Source: Hyphomicrobiales bacterium (GTDB taxonomy: Bacteria; Pseudomonadota; Alphaproteobacteria; Rhizobiales; OSC116). From it: DNA of 64,000 nucleotides. The notes beneath the pieces were generated by a model that was not told the DNA's origin, ran no database searches, and worked only from the letters and a program-made list of their open reading frames with translations. Position numbers and translations under genes: made by a program. Location of the stretch: the NCBI GenBank assembly GCA_002401855.1, contig NVUH01000008.1, positions 21,126 through 85,125 of the forward strand, given 5' to 3'. Below are positions 2,566-11,141 of this stretch, piece after piece; the first letter of the stretch is position 1, and each line of letters opens with the position of its first letter.

Positions 2566-3645
2566 TTAATTCAAGTCCCAATTGCGCAATGGTGTTTCAC
2601 CTTTTTCGCGCAAACCATCCATATAAGCTTTCAAGAAAGCTTTGGCTGGAATGCCGCGGGCTTCGGTCGCTGCTACCCATTCACCAGCAAGATCTGGCAA
2701 TCTATCAATCCATTGTTGGCGCATTTCTTCGGACATAACAGAAATGGTCACGGGGACATCTTGGTCTTTGCCAAGTTCAACCATTTTATCCATAAAGATT
2801 TCATGGCGGGTGATCATATCTTTGGCATGCTCATCAGAATAATACTGACCAGCGGCAAGCATGGCGTCTTGGATTTCTGTATCTAAACTATCCCATGTGT
2901 CTTTATTGATGGCCAAACCACCAGAGAATACCGTACCAAAGTTAACCCGTGTGATGTAAGGTGCCACTTCATAAATTTTAGTTGGCAATACACCTAGCGC
3001 CAATGACAATGCACCATCAGACACACCTGTTTGAATGTCGGTATAGAAAGTTGGTAACGCACCATCAACCGCTGTCGCGCCCACGCCGCGCAACCATGTG
3101 CCTAGCACACCAGGGGCGGATAATTTAACGCCAATTAGGTCGCTCAAATCATTGATTGGTTTTTTGGTATAAAGATCATAACTATCTGAGCCAGTTGCGC
3201 CCAAATAAACCAAATTATACTGTTCCCATTCCTTTTTAAAGGCGGGGAAGGTTTCGTATAATTCGCCCAATGTGCCCAATTGTGCAGGTACATTTGTGGT
3301 GGTAAACGGCGTAAAACCTGTTACTTGGCTCAATGGCATTTTGGCAGCTTCTAAATATGAGAATACCCAACCAATGTCTGTCACACCTTCTTCAACCGAA
3401 GTGAGTGTGGCGTTGGCTTTGTATAATTGACCACCAAAAGCTTCTTGCCAATTGATTTTATAATTGCCCGTTTTGGCCAAAATTTCATCAACTTTTGGCA
3501 TAAAGTGAGATTGGATAAAACCAATCCACGGAATGACGGTTGGATGGCTTGACGCAACAGTGATGTCCACTGTTTCTTCGGCCATGGCGGCAGGTGCAAA
3601 ACTGACCGCTGCACTTAATAGCAATGCGCTTAGTATTTTCTTCAT
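2566..3645 (-). CDS. dctP: TRAP transporter substrate-binding protein (DctP family)
   Basis: 359 aa with the signal peptide MKKILSALLLSAAVSFAPAAMA, in the usual position upstream of the QM pair. Confidence 0.85.
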   Translation of the reverse strand: MKKILSALLLSAAVSFAPAAMAEETVDITVASSHPTVIPWIGFIQSHFMPKVDEILAKTGNYKINWQEAFGGQLYKANATLTSVEEGVTDIGWVFSYLEAAKMPLSQVTGFTPFTTTNVPAQLGTLGELYETFPAFKKEWEQYNLVYLGATGSDSYDLYTKKPINDLSDLIGVKLSAPGVLGTWLRGVGATAVDGALPTFYTDIQTGVSDGALSLALGVLPTKIYEVAPYITRVNFGTVFSGGLAINKDTWDSLDTEIQDAMLAAGQYYSDEHAKDMITRHEIFMDKMVELGKDQDVPVTISVMSEEMRQQWIDRLPDLAGEWVAATEARGIPAKAFLKAYMDGLREKGETPLRNWDLN

Positions 3646-3681: not shown

Positions 3682-4071
3682 TTATTTAATTGTAAATGTC
3701 TGGCTGGATTTATTCAGGGTGATGGTCACACTGCCTTCATTAATCAACCAAGGCCTGACCTTAAATTCGCGCGCCCCACATATATGCATCGGGTCACGTT
3801 TGGCAATCTCGATGGCTGCGGCGCGTGAAGCGGCACGAACCACCACAAGCCCCTCGCCTTCCCAGCTTTCTTCATCATCTGTCCACATCGGGCCAGCTGC
3901 GTAAAGCACGCCTTCGGCTTCAAGCGCTACCTGAAACTCAAGATGTTTTTCTAAATTTTGAAATATAGATTCAAGCCCATTTGTGGCCGTGGTAAAAATA
4001 GCATAAAGCTGTTTTTGCAACATTTCACTACTGGCTTGCATCACGTCTGCGCGTGGTACTGATTTTAACAT
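3682..4071 (-). CDS. YciI-like (YCII domain) protein
   Basis: 129 aa. The C-terminal half (GLVVVRAASRAAAIEIAKRDPMHICGAREFKVRPW) matches the YCII-fold pattern. It lies 19 nt downstream of the CoA-transferase gene. Confidence 0.55.
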   Translation of the reverse strand: MLKSVPRADVMQASSEMLQKQLYAIFTTATNGLESIFQNLEKHLEFQVALEAEGVLYAAGPMWTDDEESWEGEGLVVVRAASRAAAIEIAKRDPMHICGAREFKVRPWLINEGSVTITLNKSSQTFTIK

Positions 4072-4090: not shown

Positions 4091-5242
4091 TCAATTATTG
4101 CGGCTCAATTCAGCACGTATTTCATCACCATGTTCATCCAAAACGGGCGGTGCCATAACGTCTAAATTTGGTTTTCCATCAAAATTATAAGGTGCGCGAA
4201 CTGTTGTAAAACCACCCTCTAGCGGGTTGATATCCGATACATTCTGCGCTTCAACTTTAATGTTTAAATGCAGAGCTTGCGGGTCTTCTAACGCTTCATC
4301 GGCATCATAAGCGGCTGAATGCGGCACTTCTTTTGCCAGCAATAAAGCACACCATGCATCGCGGGTTTTGGTGGCAAATACTGGCGTTAAAATATCAATT
4401 AAATCCTCTTGGTGCTTAATCCGCTCAAGCCGTTCTTCAAACCGTGGATCAGTTAGCAATTCCAACTTGCCCGTGGCTTCAATAAACCCTTGCCAAAATT
4501 TTGGTGGCGATGACATATGAATAGCCACCGATTTACCATCTGAACATACAAATGTGTATGATTGCGAAACCTTAGGACGGCTTAATGGCCCCATCACTTC
4601 ACCTTCAGATAAATAATGCGTAAAACTATCTAAATTAAAATGACACATGGCTTCAAGCATCGAAATGTCCAAACGCCTGCCTATGCCAGTTTTAGCAACC
4701 TCAAGTAAAGCTGCCATAATGCCCAAAGCGGCATATTGTCCTGTGACTGAATCGGCAATCGCAGGGCCAATCACCCGCGGTCTATCTGGCGGGGTGAGCA
4801 AACGCAAATAACCACTAGCAGCTTGCGCCACCGTGTCAAATGTCGGCCTGTCAGCCGAGGGGCCATCAGTACCAAAACCTGTAATGGCGCAATAAATAAG
4901 CTTGGGGTTAATCTTGCGCAAATCGGCTTCACCAACACCCAACCGCTCGGCCACACCCGGCCTAAAATTCTGAATAAACACATCAGCAGTTTTGATCAGC
5001 GCATGAAATGTCGCCAAATCATCGGCCTGTTTGGTATCGAGCGCAATGGAGCGTTTGTTGCGGTTATAAGTCTGAAAATGCGGTGAATATAAACCACCTT
5101 TAAACGCCCTAAATGGGTCGCCTGTTACAGGCCGCTCAACCTTAATCACATCAGCGCCTAAATCGGCCAAATGCATGCCCGCAGCGGGGCCTGTAATATA
5201 TGTGCCAAGCTCGATAACCCGAATGTCTTTCAATATCTTCAT
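4091..5242 (-). CDS. Family III CoA-transferase (CaiB/BaiF/Frc type)
   Basis: MKILKDIRVIELGTYITGPAAGMHLADLGADVIKVE is the canonical family III N-terminus. I set the start at the ATG at 5242. The longer ORF to 5383 would overlap the upstream gene by 131 nt and adds a non-homologous leader. Confidence 0.85.
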   Translation of the reverse strand: MKILKDIRVIELGTYITGPAAGMHLADLGADVIKVERPVTGDPFRAFKGGLYSPHFQTYNRNKRSIALDTKQADDLATFHALIKTADVFIQNFRPGVAERLGVGEADLRKINPKLIYCAITGFGTDGPSADRPTFDTVAQAASGYLRLLTPPDRPRVIGPAIADSVTGQYAALGIMAALLEVAKTGIGRRLDISMLEAMCHFNLDSFTHYLSEGEVMGPLSRPKVSQSYTFVCSDGKSVAIHMSSPPKFWQGFIEATGKLELLTDPRFEERLERIKHQEDLIDILTPVFATKTRDAWCALLLAKEVPHSAAYDADEALEDPQALHLNIKVEAQNVSDINPLEGGFTTVRAPYNFDGKPNLDVMAPPVLDEHGDEIRAELSRNN

Positions 5243-5252
5243 ATAGTCACTT

Positions 5253-6062
5253 TCACTCAGACTTATCTTGTGGCTTAGGCTGCTCGCCATCATAATCAAT
5301 GGCCAAATCAGCATTATGCGACATAATAAAACCAATAGAACGGGTGGATTCTTCAAACAAATGCGCCACCAAGCCCGCCGCACGCGCCAATAAAGGCACG
5401 CCTTTCATGGCTGCCAATGGCCAACCCGCATCTAACATCACTGCTGGAATGGCGCCCGAAACGTTGATCGGCAATGGCCGATTGATAATTTCTGGCGCAT
5501 GTTTGGCAAGCAAACGCAGCATTTCAATATTCTCGCCCGTCACACCATGTTCATCAGCCAAGGCCAATAAAACATTCGCCCGTGGGTCGCCCGCACTATG
5601 TTGCGGGTGGCCAAGGCCAGGCACTTTTTGGCGGGTGGCTTTTAAGTTTTTAAGGCTGTTAATCGCCGCCTCTTCCCTGCTGATACCGCTATCTTTGGCA
5701 TCTTTTATGGTGGCGACAATATATTGCCCTGCAATTTCAGAGCTGCCTGCCACCACACTGCCCATGCCAAGCAAGCCCGCTGCCATCGCGCCTTGCCATG
5801 CATCTGGGCCTGCCGCTAAGGTCATACGCGCCGCTTGCACACTTGGCACAAGGCCATGTTCGGCAATCGCCACCATGCAAGCATTGGTCATCATTTTTTG
5901 TTTTTCATCAGGGTTTTTACCTGTCACCAATAGCCAAAAATAATCAGTAAAATCAGTTTTGCCGATCAATTCGCTACACAGATCAAACCCACGCACAGTC
6001 ACACCTTCAGCGTCCGAAGTTGCGATGGCGGTGAATGATTGATCTTGTTTACCTATTCTCAT
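5253..6062 (-). CDS. Short citrate-synthase-family protein (citryl-CoA-lyase-like)
   Basis: 269 aa. It contains GLGHPQHSAGDPRA, which resembles the citrate synthase GHRVY...DPR signature. It has the ~270-aa short form usually annotated as citryl-CoA lyase. Confidence 0.7.
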   Translation of the reverse strand: MRIGKQDQSFTAIATSDAEGVTVRGFDLCSELIGKTDFTDYFWLLVTGKNPDEKQKMMTNACMVAIAEHGLVPSVQAARMTLAAGPDAWQGAMAAGLLGMGSVVAGSSEIAGQYIVATIKDAKDSGISREEAAINSLKNLKATRQKVPGLGHPQHSAGDPRANVLLALADEHGVTGENIEMLRLLAKHAPEIINRPLPINVSGAIPAVMLDAGWPLAAMKGVPLLARAAGLVAHLFEESTRSIGFIMSHNADLAIDYDGEQPKPQDKSE

Positions 6063-6083: not shown

Positions 6084-6449
6084 TTAGGTCTGGATAGACG
6101 GATAATCTTTGCCGACCCAATGTTCGAGCTTTGCCGCATATTCAAGCTGAAAGGCCAAGGGGCCTTTTTCTTTCATATAATCTTCTTCATAAATGGCGAT
6201 ATAAATGGTCAGGCATAAAAAGAAATGCGCGCCCATTTCAAACAAAGCCACATAATCATGATCAATCAAAATTTTGCGCTCTTCCGCGGTCAACGAATGA
6301 ACACTGCTCATTTCAGCTTCATTCAACCGTGGGCCAATAGATTGCTCCCACGAGGCCACCATAGCTGCAGGATTTTCCTTATAACGCGCCAATAATTCAG
6401 GGTCGCGATCGATTTGAAATAGGAATTTATTGACATAATATTTGCTCAT
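6084..6449 (-). CDS. LigA-like small subunit of a class III extradiol dioxygenase
   Basis: 121 aa. MSKYYVNKFLFQIDRDPELLARYKENPAAM and LTAEERKILIDHDYVALFEMGAHFF resemble the LigA (protocatechuate 4,5-dioxygenase alpha) family. It overlaps the LigB-like gene by 4 nt. Confidence 0.7.
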   Translation of the reverse strand: MSKYYVNKFLFQIDRDPELLARYKENPAAMVASWEQSIGPRLNEAEMSSVHSLTAEERKILIDHDYVALFEMGAHFFLCLTIYIAIYEEDYMKEKGPLAFQLEYAAKLEHWVGKDYPSIQT

Positions 6450-7324
6450 GACTTGACTCCTCCTGGCTTTTCTCCCTCAGGATACCATGTGAAATAGGCT
6501 TCCATCGTGTGAAACAAATCTAAACTATCGACATAATCCGCTTGCTGATTTGGCCCTGCAATGCCCAACATCAAAATAAACTCCATAAAGCCGCCTGTGG
6601 CATTGCCCGATTTGGCGAGGCTTTCATGGGTTACATTTTCCAAAATGGCGTCAATGTCGCCATTGCGTAACCATTCAATGGCCTGATGGTCAAATTCCGG
6701 GTCTGGCCCTGTTTCTTTAAACATACGCGGCCCACCAAGTTCGAGCGATAAATGCCCCGAACCAATGGCGGCAATGCGTTTATCAGATGGATATTCATCA
6801 ATAATTTCGCGGATCGCACGACCAAGCTGGTAAAAACGCTTAGGTGATGGCAATGGCGGAGCAAAAATATTGGCATATATCGGCACGACAGGTAAGTCAT
6901 TATCAGGCCGCACGGTGATGATTGGGCAAATAATTGAATGATCAATTTTCAACTCATTGCTAAACGCAAAATCAAACTCACGGTCAAGCAAGCCCTGATG
7001 CATAAAGTTAGAAAGATCTTCATCGCCTTCAAGCACATATTTGGGAATTGAAAATTCGCGCTCCTCATTATAGAAAGTCGCGTCATAACGCGGCGCTTTG
7101 CCAATTAAGAATTGCGGATAATTGTCTAAGAAAAATTGATGAAAATGATCCGCGCCTATCATCACCAGAATGTCTGGTTTGGCTTTGGTTAATGTTTCGC
7201 GATAGGCTTCAATCTTACGCTTCCACTCTGCGGCCTGCGGCATTTGCTGCTCAACGGGCATGGTGGTGGCTTTTAAATAAAATGGGTGATGTGTTGTGGC
7301 TAGTGTTGCAACTAGTTTTGCCAT
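6446..7324 (-). CDS. LigB-like catalytic subunit of a class III extradiol ring-cleavage dioxygenase
   Basis: 292 aa. It aligns by eye to LigB blocks: ATTHHP (N-terminal His), ILVMIGADHFHQFF (cf. VILVYNDHASAF), KIDHSIICP (cf. DVDHGCTVP) and AAIGSGHLSLELGGPR (cf. WGTGGMSHQLQGPR). Confidence 0.8.
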   Translation of the reverse strand: MAKLVATLATTHHPFYLKATTMPVEQQMPQAAEWKRKIEAYRETLTKAKPDILVMIGADHFHQFFLDNYPQFLIGKAPRYDATFYNEEREFSIPKYVLEGDEDLSNFMHQGLLDREFDFAFSNELKIDHSIICPIITVRPDNDLPVVPIYANIFAPPLPSPKRFYQLGRAIREIIDEYPSDKRIAAIGSGHLSLELGGPRMFKETGPDPEFDHQAIEWLRNGDIDAILENVTHESLAKSGNATGGFMEFILMLGIAGPNQQADYVDSLDLFHTMEAYFTWYPEGEKPGGVKS

Positions 7325-7369
7325 TCAAATGCCCTCCCTATGGTCATTTTCGTGTGTTTCTAATTTATT

Positions 7370-7387
7370 ATTTCGCCTAACGAAAAT
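7370..7387. promoter_or_regulatory. Candidate IclR operator, copy 1 (ATTTCGCCTAACGAAAAT)
   Basis: Imperfect inverted repeat ATTTCG-N5-CGAAAAT, 46-63 nt upstream of the ligB-like start. It is 17/18 identical (21/22 with flank TATT) to the reverse complement of 8427-8444. Confidence 0.6.
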
Positions 7388-7494
7388 TATTTCGTATTAA
7401 TGATAGGCGATTTATGCTATAAGTGTCAAGGCTATATTATTGACGGTTAATAAGGCCTATGCTAAACAGCAGTTAACGGCAATTAGGAGGCATT

Positions 7495-8298
7495 TTGCAA
7501 AATTTGGAACAAGACAAAGAACTGTTAGATGCTCTGGCACGCGGCCTGATGGTTATTGAATCTTTTGACCAAGAGCAGCCCGAAATGACCTTAAGCGAAG
7601 TGGCGCGCAAAACTGACATCAAGCCTGCTACCGCACGGCGCATATTGCGCACCTTGGTGGCCTTGGGTTATGCCCGCATTGTCAATAAACGTTATTTACT
7701 GACCCCCAAAATATTGGGGCTTGGTGCTGCCTATTCACGCTCCGCGCAGCTAGAAGAAGCGTTTATGCCTGAGCTAAAACGTTTGGTCGGCAAATATGGT
7801 GATGCCTCATCGGTGACTATATTGGCTGATAATGAAATTTTTTATGTGGCGCATTTTAGCGAGCAAAAAGGCAGCCGTGTTTCTGCCGATGCGGGCATCA
7901 CTTACCCCGCCTACCCTGCCTCGATGGGGCGGGTATTATTGGCTGGTTTAAACGATCAAGAACTTGACCAATATTTTGCGCAGGTCGAATTTGAAAAGCG
8001 CACCGAGAATACCGAAACCAACCCCAGCATATTGCGTAAAATCATTCAAACAACCCGAGAAGTTGGTTTTTCTTCCACCAGAGACGAGCTGTTTTATGGC
8101 GTAACGGCATTGGCTGTGCCCATCGTGGTCAACCGCGGCACGGTGATCGCGGCGATCAACTCCTCTGGCTATTCAGGCAAAGTGACAATGGATGAATTGA
8201 TCGATCAGCGGTTGGATGATTTACGCATTTCAGCCGATAGAATCGCCGATACATTGTTACGCTACCCTTCATTGCGCCATTCTATCGAACGTTCATAA
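7495..8298 (+). CDS. IclR-family transcriptional regulator
   Basis: 267 aa with a wHTH (LSEVARKTDIKPATARRILRTLVALGY) followed by an IclR effector domain. The TTG start lies 4 nt after AGGAGG. The gene is divergent from the ligB-like operon. Confidence 0.9.
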   Translation: MQNLEQDKELLDALARGLMVIESFDQEQPEMTLSEVARKTDIKPATARRILRTLVALGYARIVNKRYLLTPKILGLGAAYSRSAQLEEAFMPELKRLVGKYGDASSVTILADNEIFYVAHFSEQKGSRVSADAGITYPAYPASMGRVLLAGLNDQELDQYFAQVEFEKRTENTETNPSILRKIIQTTREVGFSSTRDELFYGVTALAVPIVVNRGTVIAAINSSGYSGKVTMDELIDQRLDDLRISADRIADTLLRYPSLRHSIERS

Positions 8299-8426
8299 CT
8301 CACAAAACATCAATGGTTTCCGTGCTATATGCCAAGAATATTCAACGCAAGAAGCGCTATATTCGGCAGATAAATTAACCCTTATTTGACAAAACCCAAC
8401 TTCCTACATAGTCTATATTAGAAATA

Positions 8427-8444
8427 ATTTTCGTTAAGCGAAAT
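8427..8444. promoter_or_regulatory. Candidate IclR operator, copy 2 (ATTTTCGTTAAGCGAAAT)
   Basis: Reverse complement ATTTCGCTTAACGAAAAT differs at one base from copy 1. It lies 36-53 nt upstream of the amidohydrolase ATG, downstream of a possible TTGACA (8386-8391). Confidence 0.6.
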
Positions 8445-8479
8445 ATTTCCAATCAAACTTACCGAGGGAGGAAGGTAGA

Positions 8480-10006
8480 ATGTGTAAATTATGTGATGAG
8501 GGAAAACCACAATTAATCTGTGGATCACGCAGAGATTTCATAAAAACAGCGGCCATAGCAGGCACTGCCACAGCGGCATCGACGGTTTTGGGCGTGACCA
8601 GTGTCAACGCCGCTGAAACCGCAGCTACGATGAGCAGCATGCCCAAAGATGTTGGCAAAACAGGCCGTAAAACCATCATCAAAGGCGGCGCCATCTTATC
8701 GATGGATGACAAAGTTGGTAATTTTGAAAAAGCCGATGTGTTGCTTGATGGCAAAAAAATTATCGCCATTGGCCCCAATCTTGAAGCTGCCGATGCCGCG
8801 ATCATTGATGCCGAAGGCATGATCGTCATGCCCGGGTTTATCGATACCCATCACCATCAATTCGAAACCGCATTACGCAGTTTTTTAGCCGATGGTATTT
8901 TGGTCAATGATGGCCAACCGCACAGCGCCTATAATTATTACGAAACTATTTTGCAAAAATTCTCAATGGTTTACCGCCCATCTGATGTTTATATCAATGA
9001 ATTATTCGGCTCCATCGCGCAATTAGATGCGGGTGTCACCACGGTGATGGATGTCTCGCAAATTCACCATTCACCCGAACATTCCGATGCGGTGATTTCG
9101 GCCTTAAAAGATGCGGGTCGGCGCGCCGTGTTTGGTTATTTTGAAGGCTGGGGCGATGATGCCAAATATCCAGATGATGCTGCCCGCATCAAAACCGAAC
9201 ATTTTGCCTCTGACGACCAGCTGTTAAGCATGGTTATGGGTGGTGAAATTTATTTGCCGGGCTATGAAAAAGCCTGGAAAGTCGGCCGCGATTTAGGCAT
9301 GCCCATTGCTTTACATGTTGTCGGCACATTTGGCATGGCAGGCACTTTTGATGAGCTAGCTAAAGCTGGCGAATTTGGCGATGACAATATTTTCATTCAC
9401 ATGACAGGCATGTCCGACATGGCTTGGAAAATCGCCGCCGATGCAGGCGCGCATGTTTCCCTATCTGTGCCGATTGAAATGACCATGCGCCACGGCATGC
9501 CGCCCATTCAAAAAGCTTTGGATTTGGGCATGCAGCCTTCTCTTTCCAGCGATGTTGAATGCACCATGACGGCAGACCCGTTCACCCAAATGCGCTCAGC
9601 GATGACTTTACAACGTGCATTCATCAACGAACGGGCGTTATCGGGCGAGGAAGATTTACCAGAATTGGTCACATCAAATGATGTCATCCGTTTCGCCACA
9701 TTGGAAGGCGCAAAAGGCCTGAAATTAGATGGCAAAACAGGCAGTCTAACGCCCGGTAAAGAGGCCGACATTGTGCTGCTTGATGCCAATGCCATTAATG
9801 TCACCCCGCTCAACCATGTACCGGGTGCTGTGGCAACATTGATGGATCGCTCAAATGTTGATAGTGTTTTAGTGGCAGGTAAAATCCGCAAATGGCGCGG
9901 CACAATGGTTAATGTAGATCTGGATAAATTGCGGACGGAATTAACCGCCAGCCGCGATTACCTATTTGAAGCCGCTGGCATCAAACAAGATCTATTTCGC
10001 AAATAG
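8480..10006 (+). CDS. Tat-exported amidohydrolase-superfamily enzyme (TRZ/ATZ / aminohydrolase-like)
   Basis: Twin-arginine motif SRRDFIKTAAIAGTATAAS followed by VNA-AE. Metal-binding HxH context (GFIDTHHHQFE). Strong RBS GAGGGAGGAAGG. 508 aa. Confidence 0.8.
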   Translation: MCKLCDEGKPQLICGSRRDFIKTAAIAGTATAASTVLGVTSVNAAETAATMSSMPKDVGKTGRKTIIKGGAILSMDDKVGNFEKADVLLDGKKIIAIGPNLEAADAAIIDAEGMIVMPGFIDTHHHQFETALRSFLADGILVNDGQPHSAYNYYETILQKFSMVYRPSDVYINELFGSIAQLDAGVTTVMDVSQIHHSPEHSDAVISALKDAGRRAVFGYFEGWGDDAKYPDDAARIKTEHFASDDQLLSMVMGGEIYLPGYEKAWKVGRDLGMPIALHVVGTFGMAGTFDELAKAGEFGDDNIFIHMTGMSDMAWKIAADAGAHVSLSVPIEMTMRHGMPPIQKALDLGMQPSLSSDVECTMTADPFTQMRSAMTLQRAFINERALSGEEDLPELVTSNDVIRFATLEGAKGLKLDGKTGSLTPGKEADIVLLDANAINVTPLNHVPGAVATLMDRSNVDSVLVAGKIRKWRGTMVNVDLDKLRTELTASRDYLFEAAGIKQDLFRK

Positions 10007-10019
10007 CAACACTCCCCAT

Positions 10020-10045
10020 GAAAAGACGCATTTATGCGTCTTTTC
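10020..10045. terminator. Bidirectional rho-independent terminator hairpin
   Basis: GAAAAGACGCA-TTTA-TGCGTCTTTTC is a perfect 11-bp stem with A/T runs on both sides. It lies between the convergent amidohydrolase and thuB-like genes. Confidence 0.8.
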
Positions 10046-10082
10046 TACTTATACTCGACAAGTCTACTTATATTCTGCAAGC

Positions 10083-11141
10083 CTATTTATGATCTCCAAG
10101 CGCTTGATCGAGAATTTTTTGCAAGGCAGCACCACGGGCAAATGTTGGCTCTAATGATTTTTGTTCACGAATTGATTTTACAAATTTTTGATAGATTGTG
10201 TCCACCTCAGGTGTTTCCACCTCATGCCATGTCTCAGTTTCTAAATCCTCAGCAAGGCAGGCGTTTAGGCGGCTGATTTTCTTTTCAAACAACACTTCCA
10301 AACCGCCCTTATCGCCATAAATGCGCAGGCGTAAATCATTATGATGGCCAGATGCAAAACGCGTGGCACTAATCGTGCCCAAAGCGTTGTTTTCAAGCTG
10401 CATATGCATGACAAAACTATCATTGGCATCAAGCGGATATTCACCAATCTGATTGTTTGGTGCTTTATCAAAAGTATGTAATTTACAATCCATATTTTGC
10501 GGCATTTGCCCCGCAATATAGGTGGCAAAATCAATGATATGAATGCCAACATCGCCCAACACACCTTTTGAGCCATGCTCGCTAGATAATCGCCACAACC
10601 ATTGACTTTCAGTTTTCCAATCGCCCCAAGCAGGCTGGGTCAACCATGATTGCAAATAAGATGCTTCAAAATGTTTCACCTCACCAATCGCGCCTTCAGC
10701 CACCATTTGCGCGGCTTTTTGCACTGCCGCGACATCGCGATAACTTAAATTGACCATATTCACGACGCCCATTTTCTGGGCTAAATCGGCCATTTCTTGC
10801 GCCTCTGGATATGATGTGGCCAATGGTTTTTCACATAAAACATGCTTATTCGCCGCTAAAATTTGCATGGTCGTGGCGTAATGAACTTTGTCAGGTGTCA
10901 CGTTTGAAACCGCATCAAATTCACCCCATGCTAGCAAATCATCTAACGAGGTGAATCTATGTTCAATGTCATACTCATCACAAAATTTTTGCAACAAAGC
11001 TTCATCCATATCCAAACCCGCAACAACGGTCACATCTGGGTTATCATTATAGGCCGCAGCATGGTTGTTGGCCATGCCACCCGTACCAACAATTGCAATT
11101 CGCGTTGGGGCGATACGGGTTGGTATTGATTTATCTGTCAT
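10083..11141 (-). CDS. thuB: Gfo/Idh/MocA-family oxidoreductase (ThuB-like)
   Basis: Rossmann N-terminus RIAIVGTGGMANNHAAAY. It follows a ThuA-family gene, as in the Sinorhizobium thuEFGKAB locus. Confidence 0.7.
   Translation of the reverse strand: MTDKSIPTRIAPTRIAIVGTGGMANNHAAAYNDNPDVTVVAGLDMDEALLQKFCDEYDIEHRFTSLDDLLAWGEFDAVSNVTPDKVHYATTMQILAANKHVLCEKPLATSYPEAQEMADLAQKMGVVNMVNLSYRDVAAVQKAAQMVAEGAIGEVKHFEASYLQSWLTQPAWGDWKTESQWLWRLSSEHGSKGVLGDVGIHIIDFATYIAGQMPQNMDCKLHTFDKAPNNQIGEYPLDANDSFVMHMQLENNALGTISATRFASGHHNDLRLRIYGDKGGLEVLFEKKISRLNACLAEDLETETWHEVETPEVDTIYQKFVKSIREQKSLEPTFARGAALQKILDQALGDHK

Follow-up and report, generated by a model that had tools for sequence, protein, structure and literature searches.

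Two near-identical three-box sites as probable operators of a PcaR-like IclR regulator linking a LigAB-like operon to a Tat-exported amidohydrolase gene

Two near-identical DNA sites, one in front of an operon that starts with a LigB-like dioxygenase gene and the other in front of an amidohydrolase gene, are most likely operators of the adjacent PcaR-like regulator of the IclR family, which would couple the two transcription units. Both lie in a window of 64,000 nucleotides, the whole stretch of DNA that was analysed from the genome of a Hyphomicrobiales bacterium. The operator reading is drawn from the co-occurrence of the motif with orthologous iclR genes, in which the half-sites are constant and the spacers free, from a weight matrix built on other loci that picks exactly these two sites in the genome, and from the fit of the motif to the published group-1 consensus and the three-box class of IclR-family sites. 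The preliminary description had proposed the operator of an IclR repressor; the operator part of this claim is supported by the co-occurrence, the matrix and the group-1 fit, while the word repressor is a deduction from the position of the sites.

The first copy of the motif, ATTTCGCCTAACGAAAATTATT (7370–7391, plus strand), and the second, ATTTCGCTTAACGAAAATTATT (the reverse complement of 8423–8444), differ at a single base and have the same orientation relative to their own downstream genes, both as originally described. The identity extends to 25 nt with one mismatch (GAAATAATTTTCGTTARGCGAAATA, 8421–8445 on the plus strand and 7369–7393 on the minus strand). The distance to the start codons, first given as 36–63 nt, was approximately right, the actual gaps being 45 nt to the ATG of the ligB-like gene at 7324 (minus strand) and 35 nt to the ATG of the amidohydrolase gene at 8480. 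The core had been described as an imperfect inverted repeat of two boxes (ATTTCG-N5-CGAAAAT). The core stands but is a perfect 5+5 repeat, TTTCG-N5-CGAAA, and the simple two-box form has to be given up for a third half-site, (C/A)GAAA, which lies 4 nt upstream of the core and had been missed. In the orientation of the gene that follows, both sites read (C/A)GAAA-TAAT-TTTCG-TTA(G/A)G-CGAAA-TA, a unit of 24–26 bp with three half-sites of alternating direction, (C/A)GAAA-N4-TTTCG-N5-CGAAA. The 5-bp boxes are centred 9 and 10 bp apart, so that the same face of the helix carries all three. An isolated further TTTCG half-site stands at 7346–7350, some 20 nt before the start codon of ligB; as the sister genome (L009) reads TTTCA there, this half-site is probably outside the operator.

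The position of the sites relative to the predicted promoters is the same at both genes (Table 1). In a promoter scan the ligB-like operon has a promoter that agrees with the consensus at 11 of 12 positions; its TTGACA is kept at the same distance in orthologous loci, and transcription is predicted to start near 7393, inside box 1. The amidohydrolase promoter was not called by the consensus promoter scan; its TTGACA-N17/18-TAnnnT layout is also found in L019, L024, L021, L026 and L027, and the predicted start lies near 8421, at box 1. At both genes box 1 begins 5–6 nt past the -10 hexamer, which makes the site span about -1 to +24 relative to the predicted start. In 14 of 18 distinct sites an exact TTGACA precedes the central box by 38–48 nt (by 42–48 nt in 13 cases) and is followed 17–18 nt later by a TAnnnT hexamer, and the keeping of the TTGACA distance across sites supports the assignment of these putative promoters and start sites. 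The likely iclR promoter is back to back with the ligB promoter and in this genome is free of operator boxes. Between iclR and the promoter of the amidohydrolase gene the plus strand showed no terminator-like site, so that read-through from iclR into the amidohydrolase gene may occur.

Table 1. Features of the window and of orthologous loci. Positions are those of the window except in rows that name another locus (L numbers), where they are those of that locus; identities are to the regulator of the window.
Feature	Position	Strand	Remarks
TRAP transporter solute-binding protein DctP	2566–3645	-	
YciI-like protein	3682–4071	-	
Family III CoA-transferase	4091–5383	-	listed GTG start, 430 aa
Short citrate-synthase-family protein	5253–6062	-	citryl-CoA lyase subfamily NF004868, 301 bits
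LigA-like small subunit, 121 aa	6084–6449	-	Pfam LigA 25.1 bits, cut-off 25.3
LigB-like class III extradiol dioxygenase	6446–7324	-	first gene of operon
Probable operator O(ligB)	7369–7394	-	boxes CGAAA 7394–7390, TTTCG 7385–7381, CGAAA 7375–7371, then TAAT
Predicted sigma-70 promoter, ligB-like operon	7400–7429	-	TTGACA 7429–7424, 18-nt spacer, TATCAT 7405–7400
Putative iclR promoter	7440–7468	+	TTGACG 7440–7445, 17-nt spacer, TGC-preceded TAAACA 7463–7468; read from sequence
IclR-family regulator, 267 aa, PcaR/PcaU/PobR-like	7495–8298	+	TTG start after AGGAGG
Block with promoter, probable operator and amidohydrolase gene	8322–10083	+	36 bp in its place in L009/G007 (L009 6828–6863)
Predicted amidohydrolase promoter	8386–8414	+	TTGACA 8386–8391, 17-nt spacer, TAGTCT (weak) 8409–8414; read from sequence
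Probable operator O(amidohydrolase)	8420–8445	+	boxes AGAAA 8420–8424, TTTCG 8429–8433, CGAAA 8439–8443, then TAT
Amidohydrolase, 508 aa	8480–10006	+	PRK08204 subfamily, 421 bits
Extra site at predicted iclR promoter, L021	7940–7975		
Extra site at predicted iclR promoter, L026	1030–1060		
Extra site at predicted iclR promoter, L010	3250–3290		
Extra site at predicted iclR promoter, L011	175–205		
Extra site at predicted iclR promoter, L032	5090–5125		
Regulator, L009/G007			98% identity
Regulator, L019			89% identity
Regulator, L024			84% identity
Regulator, L021, L026			75% identity
Regulator, L010			73% identity
Regulator, L011/L023			about 70% identity
Regulator, L027			62% identity
Regulator, L030			56% identity
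Regulator, L032, L034			55% identity
Regulator, L033			54% identity
Regulator homologue, L036			about 50% identity over the 163 residues captured; from class-wide pattern scan

The motif is confined to these two places. With up to 3 mismatches allowed, the two copies are the sole matches in the window, and 100 dinucleotide-preserving shuffles of the window gave none. The search was extended to the whole assembly (3.08 Mb in 50 contigs, 94.7% complete). Here an 18-mer core matches with 0–1 mismatches at these two places only and with 2 mismatches at one place, while up to 3 mismatches yield 14 matches against 15 for a control pattern. The perfect palindrome TTTCG-N5-CGAAA occurs at 3 places genome-wide, two of which are the motif copies. 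The motif is thus real, non-random and no dispersed repeat. An independent weight matrix, built solely from 11 sites of other loci, scores 38.0 bits and 37.8 bits at the window sites. Among the other 6.2 million genome positions none exceeds 21.4 bits, and the best runner-up, C28:843, lies within an ORF. Neither the pattern searches nor two weight-matrix scans of the genome revealed a further regulon member, with nothing above 21.5 bits. As far as the assembly shows, the predicted regulon in this genome would thus consist of exactly these two promoters.

Conservation in orthologous loci points in the same direction. Three-box sites are found beside IclR orthologues of 54–98% identity in about 11–12 further loci, and one more stands beside the roughly 50% identical homologue of L036, of which a part was captured. 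In an ungapped alignment of 17 sites from 12 loci the bases GAA of box 1, TTCG of box 2 and CGAA of box 3 are invariant, and the N4 and N5 spacers vary freely. The third half-site is a constant part of this unit, as (C/A)GAAA lies 4 nt upstream of TTTCG in 17 of 17 aligned sites with G2, A3 and A4 invariant. Fixed boxes with free spacers are the pattern expected of base-specific protein contacts. On the side of the protein, the recognition helix region, P-A-x-A-R-R-x-L-x-T-L, is invariant in 11 of 11 aligned regulators, and an unchanged recognition helix would fit an unchanged half-site. A search of 60 relatives yielded a close orthologue of the regulator (98% identity) in a single genome of the same genus, G007, and homologues of 37–50% identity in four genomes of the same order. 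The exact three-box pattern turns up once each in 5 of 400 genomes of the class, against about 17 control matches; 4 of the matches lie outside the own genome, and only that in L036 adjoins an IclR/lyase/CoA-transferase cluster. The exact three-box pattern alone is therefore an insensitive marker.

In five of the orthologous loci (L021, L026, L010, L011 and L032) an extra site, TTTCG-GTGTG-CGAAA or similar, is found between a TTGACC/TTGACA box and the iclR start, where it overlaps the spacer and the -10 region of the predicted iclR promoter, which would imply autoregulation of iclR in these loci. The window, L009, L019 and L024 have TATGCTAAACA at this place, and since it holds no box, autoregulation seems to have been lost in that clade. 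The genes around the regulator are conserved to different degrees. A pair of genes for a short citrate-synthase-family protein (citryl-CoA-lyase-like) and a family III CoA-transferase adjoins regulator homologues in nearly all sufficiently long loci (noted in the window at 4091–6062 and in L019, L021, L023, L027, L032, L034 and L036) and is absent in L030 and L033. The ring-opening partner, on the other hand, varies: it can be LigAB-like, an intradiol dioxygenase with a Dioxygenase_N domain (L034) or a protein of the DAPG_hydrolase family (L027), and L023 and L036 have none. This arrangement suggests an uncharacterised CoA-dependent lower pathway.

The claim that the amidohydrolase gene and the LigAB operon form one regulon is also supported by other genomes. 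The order of ligB operon, divergent iclR and amidohydrolase gene is kept in L019, L024, L021 and L026, and all four have three-box sites before both the amidohydrolase gene and ligB. In L021 and L026 the two sites of a locus are alike in the boxes only and differ in the spacers, which argues that their similarity has been kept by function and is not merely the result of recent duplication. In the sister genome (L009/G007) the nucleotide sequence is about 93% identical on both sides of a gap in which the block with promoter, operator and amidohydrolase gene is replaced by a short stretch (Table 1), a clean presence/absence difference of 1.76 kb between two genomes of the same genus. G007, which is 91% complete, has no homologue of the amidohydrolase and one operator only, so that the gene and the second site are absent together. 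As more distant loci keep the amidohydrolase gene, the difference is more simply read as a loss in the sister lineage.

The best model of the regulator is that of the PcaR/PcaU/PobR family (TIGR02431), and at 234.8 bits it falls below the curated cut-off of 284.75, so that it is related to this family and cannot be filed as a member. Over its full length it matches the solved structures 2ia2, a putative regulator (E 1.4e-44), and 8eju/8ejv, a regulator of the Pca regulon (E 7e-41), with 8eju as the best named solved relative; these likenesses come from sequence comparison only and include neither a DNA complex nor a ligand comparison. The genome also has about 10 other IclR-like candidates as possible binders, which counts against the assignment of the sites to the adjacent regulator; binding by this particular protein is a prediction. 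Around it, the neighbours are LigAB-like, citryl-CoA-lyase-like, CoA-transferase III, YciI, TRAP and amidohydrolase genes, and there are no pca or pob genes among them. The listed GTG start of the CoA-transferase gene leads to an overlap of 131 nt with the upstream lyase gene, and as the orthologues have 380–399 aa, the true start is probably farther downstream. DctP is followed by DctQ and DctM in orthologous loci. The amidohydrolase carries the twin-arginine motif SRRDFIK close to its N-terminus.

If the operator reading is correct, the regulator probably occupies its site as a dimer or tetramer as long as no inducer is present and would block initiation at both promoters. A metabolite of the pathway, as the presumed inducer, would then release the regulator from the operators, and the LigAB-like/lyase/CoA-transferase/YciI/TRAP operon would be induced together with the Tat-exported amidohydrolase. 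Repression is probable, since at both genes the predicted start lies under the site and the promoter has a consensus -35 box, and within the operator reading it would be clearly preferred to activation. This preference comes from the location of the site downstream of the -10 box, from the -35 box that is perfect in nearly all orthologous promoters and from the extra sites that other lineages have over the promoter of the regulator gene.

The strongest competitor, although an unlikely one, is that the same regulator binds these sites and activates, either over the core promoter in the manner of PcaR or MerR or through a switch between repression and activation as in PcaU. Its closest curated family is PcaR/PcaU/PobR, a group made up mostly of activators, its best named solved relative is the Pca-regulon regulator 8eju (E 7e-41), and the amidohydrolase promoter has a weak -10 box (TAGTCT). 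Both PobR and PcaU activate transcription, and so does PcaR of P. putida, whose site overlaps the -10 region; as the relatives differ in their mode of action, the position of the site alone is no proof of repression. Against activation, the site starts past the -10 box and reaches about +24, a position typical of repression, and nearly all orthologous promoters have TTGACA, the perfect consensus, as their -35 box, which activator-dependent promoters rarely keep. The further site over the regulator's own promoter in L021, L026, L010, L011 and L032 also fits repression.

Much less probable is the alternative raised in the preliminary description, a shared RNA element in the 5'-UTR, such as a small hairpin or switch, which would act after the start of transcription. 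Most of the motif would indeed be transcribed if the predicted promoters hold, and the boxes are able to form either of two 5-bp hairpins. The only hit of an Rfam scan, however, was a miRNA model that scored at chance level (E 0.24, 22 bits, with a gathering score of 70), the fold energies of the predicted leaders are not significant (z -1.76, -1.72, -0.68 and -0.17), and the two copies of the window fold into different hairpins. Neither of the two 5-bp hairpins shows covariation above shuffled controls: hairpin 1-2 has one lone double change, a result that 203 of 500 shuffles reach, and in both hairpins the pairs are either invariant or broken without compensation, the outer pairs being broken in 3–4 of 17 sites. 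Invariant pairs cannot disprove a structure, yet nothing supports one. In addition, the related sites over the -35/-10 spacer of iclR in other loci would escape the transcript. The RNA element is rejected on the Rfam scan, the folds of single sequences and the pair counts of both hairpins.

Least probable of all is an origin of the two copies from a duplication, as its leftovers, or from a dispersed repeat of the REP or MITE type, with no regulatory meaning. The copies do share their spacer bases too (25 nt with one mismatch), and over 25 nt the amidohydrolase copy matches the sister genome's ligB copy at 100% identity, which hints at a recent common origin or at gene conversion. The 3.08-Mb genome holds only two copies, however, and across 400 genomes of the class the exact three-box pattern does not rise above control level. 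Apart from the 25 nt and TTGACA, the two promoter regions show no relationship, and the sites of L021 and L026 are alike in boxes and not in spacers, as expected under selection on protein contacts.

The operator reading gains its value from the functional link that it provides. It ties a Tat-exported amidohydrolase to a cytoplasmic LigAB-like/lyase/CoA-transferase operon and a TRAP importer, and thereby predicts a single pathway from periplasmic hydrolysis through uptake and ring opening to CoA-dependent cleavage. A defined DNA probe and a regulator are now at hand for the search for the inducer, and the conserved site can serve as a specific marker for further members of the regulon in metagenomes. 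A wider reading, to be held only tentatively, is that regulator and three-box operator mark an uncharacterised catabolic module with a citryl-CoA-lyase-like protein and a family III CoA-transferase as its constant core, into which various enzymes for ring opening or C-C cleavage (LigAB-like, intradiol dioxygenase or DAPG-hydrolase-like) would be fitted as swappable parts. If this were true, the periplasmic Tat-amidohydrolase would have joined in this lineage as a cassette that carries its own operator and is gained or lost as a whole, the operator would act as the handle for bringing new genes under the regulator, and the pathway would be a new CoA-dependent lower route for the products of ring cleavage. 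A search of the literature for the combination of citryl-CoA lyase, extradiol dioxygenase, CoA transferase and TRAP transporter found nothing relevant.

Among known systems, PcaU and PobR of Acinetobacter baylyi and PcaR of Pseudomonas putida belong to the same IclR subfamily as judged by the best model (TIGR02431). The sites of PcaU, PobR and PcaR lie upstream of the promoter and the proteins activate; unlike this layout, the site in the window comes after the -10 box. PcaU also differs from the window sites in its third box, a direct repeat that lies outside the palindrome. The score below the cut-off and the targets, which are not pca or pob genes, mean that the regulator cannot be filed as PcaR/PcaU/PobR proper. 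The cores of the sites are nevertheless alike, as the motif of PcaU, TTTGTTCGATWATCGMACAMA, and that of PcaR, ...TCGATWATCG..., have the same TCG-N5-CGA core as the window sites, according to a survey of the IclR family (Suvorova and Gelfand 2021, PMC8222616).

The same survey gives GKTYCRYW3-4RYGRAMC as the main motif type of the family (group 1), lists PcaR, PcaU and PobR with a GTNCG-N5-6-CGNAC motif and predicts that 32 orthologous groups bind three boxes of alternating direction (PMC8222616). It also describes a third half-site for PcaU, PobR and HmgR, that of PcaU being required for binding, and has sites of the TTTCG-N5-CGAAA type for other IclR groups in its supplement. The orthologous group of the regulator with its regulon (LigAB-like, citryl-CoA-lyase-like, CoA-transferase, Tat-amidohydrolase) was absent from those parts of the survey that were searched, and neither "citryl" nor "LigB" occurs in its supplements. 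Compared with group 1 as given there, the window site, TTTCG-C-TTA-A-CGAAA, fits the consensus except for the outermost G/C, its boxes being TTTCG and not the commoner GTTCG. The likeness extends to the inverted TYCG/CGRA boxes 5 nt apart, a TYCR/YGRA repeat with a spacer of about 5 nt that is perfect at both sites, to the alternating third box that stands next to the palindrome at about one turn, as in the three-box class, and to the location in the promoters of genes adjoining the regulator gene, which is conserved in orthologous loci. The operator itself is therefore ordinary, textbook control of the IclR family in an uncharacterised catabolic cluster.
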